Assembly: GCA_037441475.1 (NCBI GenBank)
Contig: JBBISB010000002.1
Location: 60,001-92,000 of the forward strand
Direction: 5' to 3'
Origin: Candidatus Iainarchaeum sp.
GTDB taxonomy: Archaea > Iainarchaeota > Iainarchaeia > Iainarchaeales > CSSED10-239
Length of the DNA stretch: 32,000 nt
The notes below the pieces were generated by a model. It worked only from the letters and a program-made list of their open reading frames with translations. It was not told the DNA's origin and searched no databases. How positions within the stretch are numbered: the stretch's first letter is position 1; every line of letters starts with the position of its first letter. Positions 12,772 through 21,506 of the stretch are shown here, one piece after another. The position numbers and the translations under genes were made by a program.

Positions 12772-15012
12772 CTAAGAAATTATTCTTATATGTATTTCAG
12801 ATTCTTGATTTTCTAAAATCTTGTGAACAGTTGCATTGATGTCTGTTGTTTGTGCTTTAATGATACCAATATCTGTTAAAAGAGAATCAATCTTTGTTGT
12901 TATATCTCCACTTAAAAGATTCCATGTGTTAAGTGTAGTTTGATTAATTTCTTCTATCTTTTGTGCATGTGTTGTATCCATAATAGCTACTGCTGTCTTA
13001 ATGTTGTATACTTCTTGACATAATGGGCTATTATTTGTATCTTGATTTCCACAAAAGTTTTCAACTAATGCAAGGTTGTTATCAACAGATGTAAATCTAT
13101 TTCTGATCTCTTGCATGTCTTCTTGGTTAATTGCATTTGAAACAAGCCATGTGGTGTCTGCTTTAACAGCATCTAACTGTGAAGTTAAGTTAGCTAAAAG
13201 TTCATCCATTTGAACATCTATGTTTCCAATAACTAAACTTGTAATTAAGTTAGATAATGACTCATTAACATCTGTTATCTGTGTTTGGATAGTTTGACCT
13301 GTTGAAACTATTGTTCCGTTTACAGAAACCTCTAAGTTATTAAGTCTTGAAGCTAAAAACTCATTTGAATCCATGAAGCTTTGTGCAATCAATGCATTTG
13401 TGTTATTAAATTGATTTGTAATCTCACTTGCTAAATTAACATTAACAGTGTTTAAAAGATTTGTTAAAGAGGTTGTAGAGGTATTGATTTTTGTATTAAT
13501 TGATTCTCCAGTCTCTGTAACTGTTGCTGTTAATGATAAACTAACATTTGTAAGTTGAGATGAAAGTTCAGCAAATTTCAAATCTATTTTGGTTGAAAGA
13601 TCATTGTTAACTGTGTTTAAAAGATTTGTTAAAGAGGTGGTGGAAGCAGTGATGTTTGTATTAATCTCTTCTCCTGTCTCTTCTAATTTAGCATTTAAAT
13701 TAAGTTCTAAGTTTGTTAAAACACCAAATAACTCTTCAAACTTAAGATCTATTTTACTTGAAAGATCATTGTTAACTGTGTTTAAAAGATTTGTTAAAGA
13801 GGTAGTAGAAGAAGTGATGTTTGTATTAATCTCTTCTCCTGTTTCTTCAAGTTTAGCATTTAAACTTATATTAACATTTGATAAGTTTGTTTGAGAGGTG
13901 TTAAAGTCAGATGCAAGTTGACTTAATAAATCAGCATTAACTGTATTTAAAAGGTTTGTTAAGTTTGTTGTAGAGGTTGTAATATTTGTATTTATTGTCT
14001 CTCCAGTAGAAATAACAGTACCTGTTAAGTTAAGGCTTACATCATTTAAGTTTGCTGAAACTGCATTGAAATCTGTTTGAAGTTGATCTAAGATACTAGC
14101 ATTTACAGAACCTAAAAGATTTGTTAAGTTTGTGTTTGTGTTTGTTATATTTGTATTAATTGTTTCTCCTGTTGTTAAAACAGTAGCTGTTAAGTTTAAA
14201 CTTACATCATTTAAATTTGCATTTAAAGAATTAAAGTCAGTTGATAATTGATTTAAAAGACCGTTATTAATGTTTGTTAAAAGACCAGATAAGTTTGTAT
14301 TAACATTTGTTAAACTTGTCTGTATTGCTTCTCCAGTTGCTGCAACTGTTCCTGTAACAGAAACATTAACATTTGTTAAGTCTGTCTGAAGTGTTGAAAC
14401 ACCTTCTTGTAATTGAGAAGAAAGTCTTCCATTAACATCGTTTAATAAATCGTTTAAAGAAGTATTCATGTTTGTTATATTTGTTGTAATTGTCTCACCA
14501 GTAGATGCAAGTTGACCTGTAACTGTAACATTAACATCTGCAAGTTTTAAGTCTAAGTTATCAGACTTGTTTGTTAAAACACTTATTTGTTCAAGTGCTG
14601 GATTTAAGTGGAAGGATTGTGAACTTTTAACCTCATTTGCCCCTCTTTTACAAGTTACTTCTTGTTCATAAGTTCCAAGAGGGGCTGATCCTAAATAATC
14701 TGTTCTATACCAGTTACCTGCTATGTTAGAAGGTGCCATTGGCTGGTTGTTTACAAAAACAGTTTTGTCTGGGTAAAGAATTGTTACTTTACATTCATCT
14801 ATAGGGTATGGATTTCCCTTATAATCAGATAATCTTACAATAGTTGAACCATAATCATCTCTCCAGTATTCAGTGTGGGATACCCAAGAGAAGATTATTT
14901 CATTATCAACAACTGTTTTTCCATTAACATACGCTGTTGCTAAAAAAGCAATACCTATGAGAAGAATTCCTAGGACTGCTAATAATATTTTTGATTTTTT
15001 ATTTTTTAACAT
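12772..15012 (-). CDS. Large N-anchored, Asn/Thr/Leu-rich repeat (fibre-like) surface protein, no recognised family
   Basis: 746 aa. N-terminal anchor KILLAVLGILLIGIAFLA, a ~110-aa globular module, seven 55-aa tandem units plus one divergent unit, and a C-terminal region with a CGNQDTNNSPLC pair. I count about 27 N-X-S/T sequons. Confidence 0.7.
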   Translation of the reverse strand: MLKNKKSKILLAVLGILLIGIAFLATAYVNGKTVVDNEIIFSWVSHTEYWRDDYGSTIVRLSDYKGNPYPIDECKVTILYPDKTVFVNNQPMAPSNIAGNWYRTDYLGSAPLGTYEQEVTCKRGANEVKSSQSFHLNPALEQISVLTNKSDNLDLKLADVNVTVTGQLASTGETITTNITNMNTSLNDLLNDVNGRLSSQLQEGVSTLQTDLTNVNVSVTGTVAATGEAIQTSLTNVNTNLSGLLTNINNGLLNQLSTDFNSLNANLNDVSLNLTATVLTTGETINTNITNTNTNLTNLLGSVNASILDQLQTDFNAVSANLNDVSLNLTGTVISTGETINTNITTSTTNLTNLLNTVNADLLSQLASDFNTSQTNLSNVNISLNAKLEETGEEINTNITSSTTSLTNLLNTVNNDLSSKIDLKFEELFGVLTNLELNLNAKLEETGEEINTNITASTTSLTNLLNTVNNDLSTKIDLKFAELSSQLTNVSLSLTATVTETGESINTKINTSTTSLTNLLNTVNVNLASEITNQFNNTNALIAQSFMDSNEFLASRLNNLEVSVNGTIVSTGQTIQTQITDVNESLSNLITSLVIGNIDVQMDELLANLTSQLDAVKADTTWLVSNAINQEDMQEIRNRFTSVDNNLALVENFCGNQDTNNSPLCQEVYNIKTAVAIMDTTHAQKIEEINQTTLNTWNLLSGDITTKIDSLLTDIGIIKAQTTDINATVHKILENQESEIHIRIIS
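13390..14544 (-). repeat. Seven in-frame tandem 165-nt (55-codon) coding repeats inside the 746-aa ORF
   Basis: The T-G-E landmark recurs at residues 171, 226, 281, 336, 391, 446 and 501, an exact 55-aa spacing. Two adjacent units (~13590-13920) are nearly identical at DNA level, which the duplicated antisense ORF text ERSLLTVFKRFVKEVVE also shows. Boundaries are approximate. Confidence 0.85.
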
Positions 15013-15162
15013 AATTAATCTAACCTCACGTTTTTCTAAAAAATTTAATAAACAAGTAAGCAGTTATGTAGCTGTAAGATTATAACTTGTTTATAAAATT
15101 AAATATACTATTATATGTTGTATGTTATATTTATAAACATTTCCTTTTAAAAAAACTTTAAA

Positions 15163-15780
15163 TTAAGGCTTTAGGACTAAGAAAAACTTTCTTTTCTTTA
15201 AAGAATCAGAATTATAGATAAACATCTGAGAAGAAGAAAGCTCTCTTTTAAAGGAAGAAAAGATGGTTTGATAGACCTCTTCTGAGTCAGGGTAGAACTG
15301 TATTATTGAGAGGCCGTTTGGTTTTAGAAGCCTTTTAATCTCTTTTGCTATTTTTTTAATGATATTTTTAATCTCCATCTCAGATTTATTTGAAACAACC
15401 CATTGAAGAGCAGAGATTGAAAGAATAAGATCATATTTTTCATATATTTTTGATAAATCTTGAAAACCACCAAGCTTAACATCAAGTTTCTTGGATTTTG
15501 CTATCTTTATCATCTCTTTTGAAGGGTCAATACCTTTTAAAGAAAGAAAACCGTTTTCTTTTAAAAAATCTAAAGAAAACCCAGTTCCACAACCAACATC
15601 TAGAATGTCAATGGTTAAGTGGTTTGAGAGGGGAGAAGAGAGATCTAAAGCTATTTTTGTCATTTCCTCTTGTGTTTTTCTCATACCTGTGCTTTGGTTG
15701 TACCTGTTTGCTTCTTCTTCTGTATAAAAATCATTAGGGTTTGTGTAAACTTTCTCTGGAACCTCTGTGTTTAAAGACAT
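15163..15780 (-). CDS. Bud23/WBSCR22-like class I methyltransferase (small-subunit rRNA m7G MTase family)
   Basis: N-terminal PEKVYTNPNDFYTEEEANRYNQS resembles PE.FY.E.EA.KY of Bud23. Motif I is ILDVGCGTG. ISISALQWV, IQFYPDSEE and the C-terminal KKRKFFLVL match my memory of the human and yeast proteins. Confidence 0.7.
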   Translation of the reverse strand: MSLNTEVPEKVYTNPNDFYTEEEANRYNQSTGMRKTQEEMTKIALDLSSPLSNHLTIDILDVGCGTGFSLDFLKENGFLSLKGIDPSKEMIKIAKSKKLDVKLGGFQDLSKIYEKYDLILSISALQWVVSNKSEMEIKNIIKKIAKEIKRLLKPNGLSIIQFYPDSEEVYQTIFSSFKRELSSSQMFIYNSDSLKKRKFFLVLKP

Positions 15781-15793
15781 ATTAACAACTTCT

Positions 15794-16036
15794 TTATTTT
15801 ACATGCACAGTTCTTGTAGGGAAGGCAAACTCAATCTTTGATTTTTCAAATTCTTTTTTAATTGAAAGATTTATTTTATCTTTAACTATTAGATATTCCT
15901 TATAATCAAGAGCTCTTATCCAGTAGATGATTCTTATGTTTAAAGAAAAATCTCCAAAAGACTCAAAGACAACATGATAGCTATCTTTTTCTACATTTTC
16001 ATTTGTATTTAAAATATTAATTATTATTTTCTTACC
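15794..16036 (-). pseudogene. MscS C-terminal cytoplasmic domain, in frame with but cut off from the MscS ORF by a TAA at 16037-16039
   Basis: Directly after the TAA the same frame reads GKKIIINILNTNENVEKDSYHVVFESFGDFSLNIRIIYWIRALDYKEYLIVKDKINLSIKKEFEKSKIEFAFPTRTVHVK*. This is the typical MscS C-terminal alpha/beta domain pattern. It contains no Met and ends 14 nt before the next gene's start. Confidence 0.75.
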
Positions 16037-16861
16037 TTATTCTAATTTCTTAAGAGAAGTACTATAGATAACACCAATTGTGAAATTTTCTCTTTTTGCT
16101 CTTCTTGCAGAAATATTTTCAACAGCATTAAGAGAAAGGTTTCTGTTTGGAACAACAACTAAGGTGTTATCAAAGAATCTTATCTTTGTAGATCTTATAC
16201 CAATTTCTTCTACAGTTCCAAGACCATCTGAGGTTTTTAAAGTATCACCCATCTTAAATGGTTTTTCAACAAATATAACAATTCCTGATATAAAATTTTC
16301 TAAAATATCCTTAGAAGCTAAGGCAACTGCAAGACCACCAATACCAATACCTGCAAGCAAAGCACTTATATTAAATCCAAAGTTTGAGAGAACAACAAGA
16401 ATAGCTAGGATAAAAAATACAACTTTAACTAAGGATTTAAGTAAAGGTATTAATTGGTCATCATACTTTGATTCTGTTTTTTGTGTATGAGGTATTAGGT
16501 ACTCATCTATGATGTCTAAAAAAAACTTAATAATAAATAATGTGATTGCTAAGACATAAACAAAGAAAGAAGTGTTCTTAACAGCTGTTACCCACCATTC
16601 AGAAACAACTAAATATTTAAAACCAATGTTAAAGAAAATAGTCACAATTAATATCTTTAAAGGTAGAGGTTTTGATAGAATCTTAGAGATTATATCATCT
16701 ATCTTGTTTCTTGTATGCTTTGTTATTTTATTTAAAACATTTTTACTTATAAAAACAACAACTGCACTTACAACAAACCCTAAAAGAATAAAAAATATAA
16801 ACCACATGAAGTTTTTTAAGGGATTTTGTAGAAACACAAGATCAAGAATATTGAATAACAT
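16037..16861 (-). CDS. MscS-family small-conductance mechanosensitive channel (TM region plus beta domain), ORF ending at an internal TAA
   Basis: Several TM helices are followed by the conserved DILENFISGIVIFVEKPFKMGDTLK...GTVEEIGIRSTKIRFFDNTLVVVPN block. The ORF stops where homologues continue for about 80 more residues. Confidence 0.85.
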   Translation of the reverse strand: MLFNILDLVFLQNPLKNFMWFIFFILLGFVVSAVVVFISKNVLNKITKHTRNKIDDIISKILSKPLPLKILIVTIFFNIGFKYLVVSEWWVTAVKNTSFFVYVLAITLFIIKFFLDIIDEYLIPHTQKTESKYDDQLIPLLKSLVKVVFFILAILVVLSNFGFNISALLAGIGIGGLAVALASKDILENFISGIVIFVEKPFKMGDTLKTSDGLGTVEEIGIRSTKIRFFDNTLVVVPNRNLSLNAVENISARRAKRENFTIGVIYSTSLKKLE

Positions 16862-17034
16862 TTTAATAACACCTTCTAAAATTTTTATTTATAATACAAA
16901 AAAAATAAATATATAAATATATTATAAACCAAAATCTTTATATTTATATAGACATATAATATGTATGTAAAATTAACTTTAAGTTATTTACTTCTTTTTA
17001 TAAATAAATTACAATTAAATAAAAACGATTAAAC

Positions 17035-17745
17035 ATGATAGACAAACCAATAGTTGAACTTAAAAACGTCTCTAAGATATACAAGATGGGACTTGTTGAA
17101 GTAAAGGCAATAAACGATGTTTCCTTAAAAATATTTCCAAAAGAATTTGTTGCAATCATGGGAGCGTCTGGTTCTGGAAAATCAACAATGATGCATTTAA
17201 TTGGTGCACTTGATCTTCCTACAAAAGGAGAGCTTTCTATTCATAAGCATAAACTTTTAAGCTTTACAGAAGATGAACTTGCATCCTTAAGAGGAAAAAC
17301 CATTAGTTTTGTTTTTCAAGACTTTCATTTAATACCTACCCTTACAGCTTTTGAAAATGTTAGACTTCCTATACTCTTCCAAACAAACGAAGATGATGAA
17401 GAAACATACAACAGAAGATGTGAAGAACTTTTAGATGTTGTTGGTTTAAAAGATAGAATGGACCATAGGCCAGCTGAACTTTCAGGTGGTCAACAACAAA
17501 GAGTTGCAATTGCAAGAGCACTTGCAAATGATCCTGAAATTATTTTAGGAGATGAACCTACAGGAGCCCTTGACTCTAAGTCCTCTGCTGAGATTATTCA
17601 ACTTTTAAAAAAACTAAATAAATCTGGAAAAACAATAATCATTATTACACATGATATTAATGTTGCAAAAAATGCAAAAAGAATAATTACTTTAAAAGAT
17701 GGAAAAATAATTGAAGATAAAATAAACAAACAAGAAAACCCTTAA
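17035..17745 (+). CDS. ABC transporter ATP-binding protein, MacB/LolD-type
   Basis: Walker A GASGSGKST, signature LSGGQQQRVAIARAL, Walker B ILGDEPTGALD, H-loop ITHD. Confidence 0.92.
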   Translation: MIDKPIVELKNVSKIYKMGLVEVKAINDVSLKIFPKEFVAIMGASGSGKSTMMHLIGALDLPTKGELSIHKHKLLSFTEDELASLRGKTISFVFQDFHLIPTLTAFENVRLPILFQTNEDDEETYNRRCEELLDVVGLKDRMDHRPAELSGGQQQRVAIARALANDPEIILGDEPTGALDSKSSAEIIQLLKKLNKSGKTIIIITHDINVAKNAKRIITLKDGKIIEDKINKQENP

Positions 17746-17757
17746 GAAAAAGAAAAC

Positions 17758-18948
17758 ATGAAAAAACTAATTCCCTTTGTTATCTCAAACCTTAAAAGAA
17801 GGAAACTTAGAAGTTACTTAACAATCATAGGTATAATCGTAGGAGTTGTTGCTATCGTCTCTTTAATATCTTTGTCTGAAGGTCTTAAGAGTGGAGTTAG
17901 TCAAGAGTTTTCAAAAACAGGGGCACAGAAAATAACAGTTTCTTCAAAGTATGCACAAACCATACAAGGCTCCTCCTTTCCATTAACTGAAGATGAGGTT
18001 AAAGAGATTGAAAAACTGCCCTCCATTAACTTTGCAACCGGTTACCTTAATACCAGGGCCTCTATTGAGTTTAATAGAAGTAAAAAATTTGCAAGTGTTA
18101 GTGCATATGAAACAGATGTCTATAAAGAGATACTACTTCAAGAAGGAAAAGAAATATTTAGAGGAAAAATAATCACAGATGACAAGGCAAAAGAAATTGT
18201 TATTGGTTATGATTTGTTTAACAGTGATGAATTTTTTGGAAAAACAGTTAAGCTCGGAGATACAGTTGAAATATCAAACCAGAAATTTAAGGTGGTTGGA
18301 GTATTAAACGACTCTGGAAATAAGAATGCTGATAGAGCAATCTATATGTCAATGGATAACCTTAGAGAGATATCAAATATCAAAGATAAGGAAGTTGATG
18401 TTATTTATGCTGTTATTAAAGAAAATGCAGATATTGAAAAAACAGGGCTTGATATTGAAGCAAGACTTGAAAAATTTAGAAAAGTTGAAGACTTTGTTGT
18501 AACTACACCTGTTAAGGAAGCAGAGAGTAGAGAAGAAACATTAAAAGCAGTTTCAATTGTTGTGGTTGGAATTGCATCAATCTCTCTTTTGGTTGGAGGT
18601 ATTGGGATACTTAACTCCATGTACACCTCTGTTCTTGAAAGAAGAAGAGAGATTGGGATTATGAAGGCTATTGGTGCTAGAAGAGAGGATATCTTAAAAA
18701 TATTCTTAATTGAAGCAGGAATAATTGGTTTGATTGGTGGTATTATTGGCACCATAGGTGGTTTTTTAATAGCTTTTATAGTAAATACCATAGGAAAGTT
18801 TACAGGAACAGAAATATCAGCTTCCTTTGATCCAACCATTGTTTTAATTGCTCTTAGCTTTTCATTCTTGTTAGGCCTTTTAGCTGGTTTTCTTCCAGCA
18901 TACCAAGCATCTAAACAACAAGCAATTGATTCTTTAAGAGAGGAATAA
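17758..18948 (+). CDS. ABC transporter permease, FtsX/MacB-type
   Basis: An N-terminal TM, a large extracytoplasmic domain and three C-terminal TMs. Conserved LERRREIGIMKAIGARREDI segment. Confidence 0.85.
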   Translation: MKKLIPFVISNLKRRKLRSYLTIIGIIVGVVAIVSLISLSEGLKSGVSQEFSKTGAQKITVSSKYAQTIQGSSFPLTEDEVKEIEKLPSINFATGYLNTRASIEFNRSKKFASVSAYETDVYKEILLQEGKEIFRGKIITDDKAKEIVIGYDLFNSDEFFGKTVKLGDTVEISNQKFKVVGVLNDSGNKNADRAIYMSMDNLREISNIKDKEVDVIYAVIKENADIEKTGLDIEARLEKFRKVEDFVVTTPVKEAESREETLKAVSIVVVGIASISLLVGGIGILNSMYTSVLERRREIGIMKAIGARREDILKIFLIEAGIIGLIGGIIGTIGGFLIAFIVNTIGKFTGTEISASFDPTIVLIALSFSFLLGLLAGFLPAYQASKQQAIDSLREE

Positions 18949-18983
18949 AAAAAAATTATAATTTTAAAAGAAAAGGTGAAAAT

Positions 18984-19100
18984 ATGAACTTAAACAAAAT
19001 AATAATAGTTATTGCATTGTTAATGGTTATGATAATACCAGTTAATGCTGCAACAACAAACTATGACATCATAAACTTAAATGCAGATAGATACATATAA
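18984..19100 (+). pseudogene. 38-codon signal-peptide ORF, probably the detached 5' end of the 19081..20229 gene
   Basis: GGTGA (18975-18979) lies 4 nt before the ATG. The ORF reads MNLNKIIIVIALLMVMIIPVNAATTNYDIINLNADRYI*, a classic signal peptide. It overlaps the next ORF by 20 nt in a different frame. Confidence 0.55.
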
Positions 19101-20229
19101 CTACAACCCAACACCTGTAATCTCAGGAGAGGAGTTTGAGATATGGATACAACTTACAAACAAAAGTAATGTTGCTGCTGATAATATAGAATATTTTTTA
19201 GAAACAGCATACCCTTTCATTTTAATATCTGAAAATGAAGGGAAGATTTCAAAGCTTGAGGGCTTTCAATCAAAGATAATAAAATACAAATTAAAAACAA
19301 ACAACGATGTTTTAACAGGAACATACGATCTTGAGTTTAGGTATAAAAGAGAGGGTATTAGTATTTACAATATTAAAAAATACACTATAGACATTAAAGG
19401 TAAATCAGCTATACTTGAGATTGTTTCATCTAATGTCTTAGAAGCAAGTATTGGAGATGATTCAACTGTTCTTTTAAACCTTAAAAACTTAGGACAAAAA
19501 GACTCTAAGGATATCTTCATAACACTCGGAGACTCTGCAGACCAAACAATTAAGGTTATTGGTCTTAAGACACAATATCTTGAGAGAATAAATATTGGAC
19601 AAGAAACAAACGTTTCATTCATGATTAGTGTTTCAAAAAACGTTACTGAAACAAGCTACACTCTTCCAATAACTATTGAATATTCAGATATTGATAGAGA
19701 TTATAAGGTTACAAGAAACATAGGAATAAAGCTTAATGATCAGCCAAAAATGATTTTAAGTGTTATTGGTGTTGGAGATGACTTTAAAATAAAACCAAAC
19801 AGTAAAGAAACAATCACAATTGAGATTTACAATGTTGGTAATGTTGATACTGAGATATCATATGTAACTATTGAAGGAAGCGGTATTAACTCAACAAAGG
19901 ACTTTATAGGTTCTATTGAAAGAGATAATTACGATAAGATAGATGTTGTTTTAAACACTAAAGACATTAAAGAAAAAGAAACAGAAATTACTGTTACTCT
20001 TTTCTATAAGGACAACAACCTTAAGGAACAAAAGATAACACAAACAGTTAGTGTACAAACAGATTTTTCTGCAAATGGAAAGAATGCAAATAAAGCTGTA
20101 ATGTCTGTTCTTGGTATACTTGGTTTTATCTTAGGCCTTGCAGTATTTATTCTTCTTGCAAGATGGCTTATTAAGATATTAATAAAACCTGCATACCATG
20201 CTGTTGTTGGAATATTTAAGAGAAAATAA
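19081..20229 (+). CDS. Beta-sandwich repeat surface protein (COG1361/CARDB-like) with a C-terminal TM anchor
   Basis: Three repeats of the pattern ...V.PG/SGEEF.I.I.L.N.G... (for example PTPVISGEEFEIWIQLTNKS, DSTVLLNLKNLGQKD, KETITIEIYNVGNVD). C-terminal TM VMSVLGILGFILGLAVFILLA. As written it has no signal peptide, and a TAA sits immediately upstream of its ATG. Confidence 0.6.
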   Translation: MQIDTYNYNPTPVISGEEFEIWIQLTNKSNVAADNIEYFLETAYPFILISENEGKISKLEGFQSKIIKYKLKTNNDVLTGTYDLEFRYKREGISIYNIKKYTIDIKGKSAILEIVSSNVLEASIGDDSTVLLNLKNLGQKDSKDIFITLGDSADQTIKVIGLKTQYLERINIGQETNVSFMISVSKNVTETSYTLPITIEYSDIDRDYKVTRNIGIKLNDQPKMILSVIGVGDDFKIKPNSKETITIEIYNVGNVDTEISYVTIEGSGINSTKDFIGSIERDNYDKIDVVLNTKDIKEKETEITVTLFYKDNNLKEQKITQTVSVQTDFSANGKNANKAVMSVLGILGFILGLAVFILLARWLIKILIKPAYHAVVGIFKRK

Positions 20230-20285
20230 ATTTTTTATTTTCTTTTTTTTTATTTTATAAAAAATATAAAAATAATAATTTACAC

Positions 20286-21506
20286 ATGAACACAGAAAAA
20301 TACAAGCACCTTATAGATTTAACATTTAAAAATATTCTAAGAAGACTTAGATCAATTTTAACAATCATAGCTGTAGTGATTGGAATTGCAACCATTGTTG
20401 CCTTGTTTTTAATAAGTGATGGACTACTTAACTATGTTGAAGATGTTTTTATGACAATGGGGATAAACACTATTTTCATTTTTCCAGTAAGCTTTCAAGG
20501 TGGGGCAAACCAAACTATTAGTAGGGTTTCTGAGGATATTAAGATAACGCAAAGTGATCTCCGGCTTATTGAAAAAATACCTGAAATAGATTATGCAATT
20601 GGTTTTTCTTTCAGAACAGCAAAGTATGAGTATAAGGGGGAAGAGAGTTATCAGTTTGTGATAATGGTTGACCCTAAGCTTGCAGATAAAACCTTTGAAA
20701 TAATGGATATAGGGGTAAGGGAAGGAAAGAGCCTTCAAGGAAGAGAAGGGGCAGAAATTGTTGTTGGTTCATACTTTGCAGATAAACTTTTTAAAGAACC
20801 TATTAAGGTTGGACAAAAAATAAAAATTCAAGATAAAGAGTTTAAGGTAATTGGTATTTTAGAACCTGTTGAAAATATGCAAGATGACTCTCAAGCGTAT
20901 ATAACCATGAACAGTGGAAGAGAACTTTTTGATACTGGAGAAACCTTAGATCAGATTTATGCAAGTGTAAAGCCTGAGTATGATCCTTTAGTTGTTCAAA
21001 AAGAGATTGAAAAAAGACTTGAAAAGAAACATGGTAAAAATAAATTTTTTATAATAACAGCAAAACAAGTTTTAACAATGATAAAAACTGTATTAGGTCT
21101 TTTACAAACCATTTTAGTCTCAATCGGGCTTATATCCATTGTTGTTGGAAGTATTGGTATCATGAACTCAATATATACATCAGTTATTGAGAGGACAAGG
21201 GAGATTGGTATCTTAAAATCATTAGGGGCTAAAAAAGAAGATATTTATTTTATATTTACCTTTGAGTCTTTAGTGTTATCTTTAATTGGTGGAATCATTG
21301 GTTTGGGGCTTGGTATTGGAATTGCTAAGTTTGTGGAGTATTATGCAGCAAGCCAAGCCTTTATTACCCTTAATATAATAGTAACATGGCAAGTTGTGGC
21401 TCTTGCTTTAGGAGTATCCATTATTGTTGGAATTGCAGCTGGACTTTTACCTTCAAAATCAGCAGCAAAGATGAATGTCGTGGATGCTTTAAGAAAAACT
21501 ATTTAA
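20286..21506 (+). CDS. ABC transporter permease, FtsX/MacB-type (second copy)
   Basis: Same architecture as 17758..18948. Conserved IERTREIGILKSLGAKKEDI segment. Confidence 0.85.
   Translation: MNTEKYKHLIDLTFKNILRRLRSILTIIAVVIGIATIVALFLISDGLLNYVEDVFMTMGINTIFIFPVSFQGGANQTISRVSEDIKITQSDLRLIEKIPEIDYAIGFSFRTAKYEYKGEESYQFVIMVDPKLADKTFEIMDIGVREGKSLQGREGAEIVVGSYFADKLFKEPIKVGQKIKIQDKEFKVIGILEPVENMQDDSQAYITMNSGRELFDTGETLDQIYASVKPEYDPLVVQKEIEKRLEKKHGKNKFFIITAKQVLTMIKTVLGLLQTILVSIGLISIVVGSIGIMNSIYTSVIERTREIGILKSLGAKKEDIYFIFTFESLVLSLIGGIIGLGLGIGIAKFVEYYAASQAFITLNIIVTWQVVALALGVSIIVGIAAGLLPSKSAAKMNVVDALRKTI

Follow-up and report, generated by a model that had tools for sequence, protein, structure and literature searches.

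The window, which is the whole analysed stretch of 32,000 nucleotides (C2:60001-92000), carried a gene for a channel of the mechanosensitive MscS family in which the reading frame was interrupted by a single TAA at codon 275. It is probable that this TAA is a genuine stop that is not read through, and that the window copy of this conserved YnaI-like MscS gene is a nonsense allele of recent origin. The event is of an ordinary kind, a young pseudogene or truncated allele. The genome in which it was found is 769 kb long in two contigs, with 28% GC and a completeness of 89.5%, and the labels of the named homologues ('Candidatus ainarchaeum sp.', archaeon or Nanoarchaeia) indicate that the host is a DPANN-type archaeon.

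An MscS gene interrupted by one in-frame stop

The ORF began at the ATG at 16861, and its frame remained open for 80 codons past the TAA at 16039..16037, as far as a second TAA at 15796..15794 (Table 1). A first-pass annotation of this DNA had ended the ORF at the same internal TAA and had put the full-length gene at about 355 codons. The ORF list and the translation agreed with this: there were 274 codons before the stop and 355 sense codons in all, and close orthologues are 351-356 amino acids long. The gap to the start of the next gene, given in that annotation as 14 nt, measured 13 nt, the next ATG being at 15780.

Table 1. Positions of the interrupted MscS gene, its parts and neighbours, and of the other nonsense codons verified in the genome. 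Positions refer to the window unless they are preceded by a contig name.
Feature	Position	Strand	Basis or remark
Complete gene for the MscS/YnaI-type mechanosensitive channel; 355 sense codons, one internal and one terminal TAA	15794..16861	minus	translation, Pfam, PDB phmmer, AlphaFold/Foldseek, orthologue lengths
Truncated ORF of 274 codons ending ...SLKKLE; N-terminal membrane helices, pore helix TM3 and complete beta-domain	16040..16861	minus	ORF list, Pfam
Internal stop TAA in place of codon 275 (coding strand G>T; plus strand C>A at 16039)	16037..16039	minus	GAA (Glu) in sister strain
Stranded 80 codons (GKKIIINILN...PTRTVHVK), most of the alpha/beta (cage) C-terminal domain, no usable start	15797..16036	minus	PF21082, start-codon scan, model
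Original terminal stop TAA of the full-length gene	15794..15796	minus	sequence; one more Lys codon precedes the stop in the aligned sister strain
Putative Shine-Dalgarno-like motif AGGTG, 8 nt before the ATG	16870..16874	minus	read from the sequence; conserved in sister strain
Next gene, methyltransferase, ATG at 15780	15163..15780	minus	ORF list; 13 nt beyond the terminal MscS TAA
Codons of G116D, L172I, T229F and R256K, in that order	16516-16514, 16348-16346, 16177-16175, 16096-16094	minus
Nonsense codon in CorA gene (L039)	C1:40154		TAA; GAA in congeners
Nonsense codon in DsbA-like thioredoxin gene (L038)	C1:508681		TAA; GAA in congeners
Nonsense codon in GlmS-like gene (L040)	C1:46378		TGA; GGA in congeners

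Pfam searches recovered the hallmark arrangement of the MscS family, in which a TM3 helix (PF21088, MS_channel_1st; residues 144-184, 35 bits against a cut-off of 23.1) precedes a beta-domain (PF00924; residues 185-251, 78.7 bits against a cut-off of 20.2). The AG-GIGGLA motif was conserved in the orthologue alignment. The MscS C-terminal domain (PF21082) matched residues 259-345 of the read-through translation, with 57 bits when scored across the stop. The TAA is therefore situated within this domain, at about position 18-20 of the 88 in the profile. The 80-codon tail alone still scored 43.9 bits against a cut-off of 21, which bears out the earlier reading of these in-frame codons as an MscS C-terminal domain. 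In other words, the alpha/beta domain is encoded in the DNA and can be modelled, and the TAA at codon 275 cuts it from the ORF; judged from the sequence, the domain is part of the ancestry of the gene and is absent from the predicted product. No in-frame ATG was present in the tail, as the first-pass annotation had also noted, and the sole in-frame GTG or TTG was a GTG at codon 76 of 80. A split gene with a separately translated C-terminal piece was considered and was ruled out by the missing start codon.

In a phmmer search of PDB the read-through protein matched solved YnaI and MscS channels with E values from 5e-34 to 1e-23. An AlphaFold model of the read-through sequence, based on an alignment of 43 sequences, had a mean pLDDT of 83, and its top Foldseek matches were again YnaI and MscS (E about 1e-19, probability 1.00), with an overall subunit fold like that of the solved channels. 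In the model, the strands of the beta-domain ran from residue 207 to 238, and the alpha/beta domain was made up of a strand (256-264), a helix (270-286), two further strands (296-302 and 307-315) and a second helix (320-340). Codon 275 falls within helix 270-286, and the stop thus cuts the first helix of the alpha/beta, or cage, domain. The cytoplasmic cage of MscS, with its side portals, is formed by the alpha/beta domains of the seven subunits (PMC12334622). Loss of 80 of the roughly 97 alpha/beta residues should abolish this cage and would probably destabilise the oligomer. Since the 274-residue product would consist of the membrane helices and the beta-domain only, loss of function of the channel is likely. 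The genome contained one other MscS-like gene, which was intact but divergent, with a product of 287 amino acids in which only the beta-domain was recognisable; MscL was not detected in this genome (89.5% complete).

Conservation of the gene and of codon 275

The product of a sister strain (P0121, 356 amino acids), encoded on L003, a Logan contig of 3.3 kb from SRR14932604, fell in the same 90% cluster as the window gene. Amino acid identity between the two was 95%, DNA identity was 93.4% over the 3.3 kb, and the order MscS, methyltransferase, large surface protein was common to both. The alignment with orthologues that the first-pass annotation had proposed placed GAA (Glu) in the sister strain against the TAA of the window. 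In the 39 further orthologues the same column held K (26 sequences), E, T, V or D, and a stop in none.

Homologues found by database search, down to about 35% identity, were almost all 348-360 amino acids long and had all three domains; the close ones were without exception 351-356 amino acids long, and the only short homologues were the 274-residue product of the window itself and a few cut fragments. Orthologues that naturally end at this point, which the first-pass annotation had named as a ground for refutation, were not seen among the close homologues. An MscS-family match was present in 38 of the 41 related genomes, and the orthologue was uninterrupted in all six congeners searched, which, together with the GAA of the sister strain, supports a recent nonsense mutation, one of the origins that the annotation had offered. 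Among the 41 genomes the TAA at codon 275 was confined to that of the window. The only other full-length match with a stop was a distant one in another genome of the order (37% identity; G036, C1:760714-761745), which contained an in-frame TAG. No match was obtained in JGI metagenomes with a degenerate 36-mer covering the stop, and a protein-based scan of the same metagenomes returned only relatives at 69% identity or less and no further strain-level allele.

Age of the lesion

Comparison with the sister strain showed 43 synonymous and 14 non-synonymous changes in the first 274 codons (dS 0.28, dN/dS 0.079), and 3 synonymous and 5 non-synonymous changes in the last 80 (dS 0.07, dN/dS 0.38); the difference had a Fisher p of 0.04, with only 8 changes in the downstream part. 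The five downstream replacements (I/V, T/K, V/I, I/L and S/A) were conservative and lay at variable columns. With a dS of 0.28 between the strains and only about 19 amino acid differences in total, the lesion appears to be young relative to the split, and the small numbers of changes would fit a very young lesion. At synonymous sites the window copy differed from the sister strain four times less downstream of the stop than upstream (0.07 against 0.28). This could be due to chance or to a recombination tract that ends inside the gene.

Four private replacements (G116D, L172I, T229F and R256K) were found at columns at least 95% conserved among 41 sequences, one of them (L172I) within the Gly-rich motif of the pore helix. 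The sister strain had one private change at such columns (T229S), and intact close orthologues mostly had none to two, with four in one of them. In addition, the window copy lacked the last Lys codon (AAA, part of an A-run) that the sister strain and the majority of orthologues have. In the sequence, the four private changes and the lost Lys codon give only a hint of relaxed constraint. The first-pass annotation had seen no other lesion in the downstream part and no secondary decay. This is partly right, but slightly overstated with respect to the terminal Lys codon and the four conserved residues.

Other nonsense codons in the same genome

The genome was scanned, on the basis of codon usage, for pairs of coding-like segments parted by one stop, and candidates were confirmed where a single Pfam domain spanned the stop. 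Nonsense codons were found in this way in the genes for CorA, a DsbA-like thioredoxin and a GlmS-like protein, the frame of the last being only 416 codons long against about 610 in the congeners. Two TGA sites, at C2:4316 and C2:4655, were also flagged as candidates by the codon-usage scan. With several verified lesions in the genome, the MscS stop is one of a set of young lesions and not an isolated case. Other members of the group also have genes broken by nonsense codons, as shown by the TAG in the MscS gene of G036 and by TAA stops in the GlmS gene of a congener (G001).

The congener codons (GAA, GAA and GGA), together with the GAA of MscS, indicated that all four polarised nonsense codons had arisen by G>T on the coding strand. 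Under the codon usage of this genome, G>T makes up 17% of the single-base paths that create a stop, so that under uniform mutation the p for four out of four is about 9e-4. With mutation restricted to G and C, the share of G>T among the stop-creating paths rises to 45% and the p for four out of four to about 0.04. By these path-based values the pattern is compatible with strong AT-biased, transversion-rich mutation pressure.

A G>T signature common to the whole genus was considered and rejected: the GlmS stops of G001 (C21:3838-4890, L060) derive from TTA>TAA and AAA>TAA, and the apparent stops in the CorA gene of another congener (G002) lie upstream of its start. Missing repair of 8-oxoG as the source of the G>T lesions was likewise not retained. 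One HhH-GPD glycosylase was present, and the search for AGOG matched nowhere, the control included. As a separate observation, the broken CorA, DsbA-like and GlmS-like genes are all envelope-related or feed envelope synthesis.

Alternative explanations

The alternative that fared best is that the truncation left a working channel, the 274-residue product forming a heptameric, tension-gated pore without a cage, like a miniature MscS; on the present analysis this would be unlikely. The short ORF does retain the complete pore helix and beta-domain, PDB chains of 171-174 amino acids match residues 102-250 of the query only, and TcMscS, which consists of TM2, TM3 and a beta-domain without an alpha/beta domain, is a functional heptamer (PMC12334622). 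However, such an architecture was found in no close relative, all of which have products of 351-356 amino acids, and the truncation occurs in one strain only, beside several other nonsense lesions. In the model, moreover, strand 256-264 would be left dangling in the product, along with one third of a helix, both of them remnants of a domain that is normally packed between subunits. In E. coli MscS, recovery from inactivation is already disturbed when no more than the last 20 residues are missing, according to Schumann et al. 2004 as cited in PMC4440785.

Next to be weighed is a sequencing or consensus error, in which case the organism would really have GAA or another sense codon and an intact gene. 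The many other lesions of the genome could in principle come from a poor consensus, and contig C1 contains 300 N. Against this, a 24-kb Logan contig (SRR11582162_2266), retrieved by look-up of two flanking gene products, was 100% identical to the 7 kb of the window from 13774 to 20745 and had the same TAA, and the exact 274-residue product was on record from both NCBI and Logan, on two contigs as counted. Logan contigs are built directly from the reads of a run by a different pipeline, which makes an artefact of the assembler or of polishing unlikely; the agreement does not cover systematic read error or a mixed population, because the NCBI and Logan assemblies probably rest on one run. In MscS a base was substituted at a site that is not part of a homopolymer, clean substitutions of one type account for the other nonsense codons of the genome, and the neighbouring genes are intact. 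The assembly error that the first-pass annotation had kept among its options is thus disfavoured, chiefly by the identical TAA in the separate Logan assembly, and an error of any such kind is very improbable.

Exact-match searches gave no record of the window product with Glu at position 275, nor any of the neighbouring 746-residue surface protein. One further Logan contig, of 5-10 kb, carried the exact products of both flanking genes (window 15163-15780 and 17035-17745). Given the count of two contigs for the 274-residue product, this contig may lack the same MscS call.

A broader proposal would combine a working cage-less MscS, as a prokaryotic counterpart of TcMscS, with the G>T lesions in the CorA, DsbA-like, GlmS-like and surface-protein genes, and would see in them selected remodelling of the envelope and not mere decay. 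There is little reason to expect that this is so, and it is rated about as low as a consensus error.

Least credible of all is that the C-terminal domain is still made, by programmed read-through, recoding of TAA or re-initiation. Past the stop the frame is indeed open throughout, and its translation is still recognised as an MscS C-terminal domain, and a weak AGGT is followed by ATA, ATA and ATT codons just past the stop, but re-initiation would find no in-frame ATG, GTG or TTG in the first 75 codons of the tail. At genuine gene ends TAA is the most frequent stop of the genome, closing 206 of 307 long ORFs (67%; 64 end in TAG and 37 in TGA), and both TGA and TAA occur in the other broken genes. 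ARAGORN found 36 tRNAs in this 89.5% complete genome, none of them with an anticodon that reads a stop (TTA, CTA or TCA), a count that may miss intron-containing archaeal tRNAs. The release factor aRF1 was canonical in its NIKS, YWCDSTF (YxCxxxF) and GGQ motifs. No significant RNA structure was predicted in the 96 nt 3' of the stop (MFE -11.7 kcal/mol against a mean of -9.8 kcal/mol for shuffled sequences, z = -0.81). Finally, the stop is missing from the sister strain and from all congeners. The read-through that the first-pass annotation had considered has accordingly found no support in stop usage, tRNAs, aRF1 or downstream RNA folding.

The same ARAGORN search reported a tRNA-Ile with the anticodon TAT at C1:255853-255928 and a tRNA-Ile with the anticodon GAT about 3 kb away. 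In archaea AUA is usually read by a modified CAT anticodon.

Proposed course of events

Taken as a young nonsense allele, the gene would have the following history. A single, recent G>T change would have turned GAA (Glu275) into TAA in a conserved YnaI-like MscS gene, in a genome where nonsense lesions of the same G>T kind appear to be building up elsewhere. Translation would now end at codon 275, where the cytoplasmic alpha/beta domain has its first helix, and the last 80 codons would no longer be translated. The product of 274 residues would be expected to have the membrane helices, the pore helix and the beta-domain, and to lack the cage that forms the side portals. We infer that the channel is lost or severely impaired, which would make the gene a young pseudogene or a truncated allele.

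Comparison with known systems

The main value of this locus is as a clean negative: where a DPANN genome shows an in-frame TAA with an undamaged domain beyond it, recoding or read-through could be suspected, and neither finds support here. The fitting annotation is a truncated or pseudogenised YnaI-like MscS gene. As a smaller point, the locus is a dated instance of gene loss still under way in an archaeon with a very small genome, and, added to the three verified cases, it suggests that the nonsense load of this strain is biased towards G:C>T:A. Should the truncated product prove active, nature would have tested whether MscS can do without its cage.

Among solved structures the best match was YnaI, a low-conductance member of the MscS family from E. 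coli (PDB 6zyd, 6urt, 5y4o and 9h95), with an E value of about 4e-33 over residues 104-354, and YnaI was also the top fold match (Foldseek E 4e-19). The two are similar in length and share extra N-terminal membrane helices placed before the core of TM3, beta-domain and alpha/beta domain. They differ in that identity is only about 24-28% and that the archaeal gene is interrupted at codon 275, leaving the alpha/beta domain untranslated. With E. coli MscS the gene has in common the domain order of pore helix, beta-domain and alpha/beta domain. The MscS delta266-286 mutant is a precedent for a C-terminal truncation that alters channel behaviour (Schumann et al. 2004, in the account given in PMC4440785), although it removes only the terminal beta-barrel, whereas here 80 residues are missing, nearly the whole alpha/beta domain.

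TcMscS of Trypanosoma cruzi (PDB 9BGQ, 9BGS and 9BGT; PMC12334622) resembles the truncated product in that it ends shortly past the beta-domain and has no cytoplasmic cage. It is, however, an evolved and conserved short protein with two short membrane helices and a special gate in the beta1-beta2 loop (PMC12334622), whereas the 274-residue product would result from a one-step truncation of a full-length channel and would keep a fragment of the lost domain. There is a likeness in kind to the young nonsense pseudogenes of reduced or symbiont genomes, which also show a single stop in an otherwise intact frame, intact orthologues, and several cases per genome. There is no essential difference from these pseudogenes; in the present genome, all four nonsense codons that could be polarised were G>T changes.
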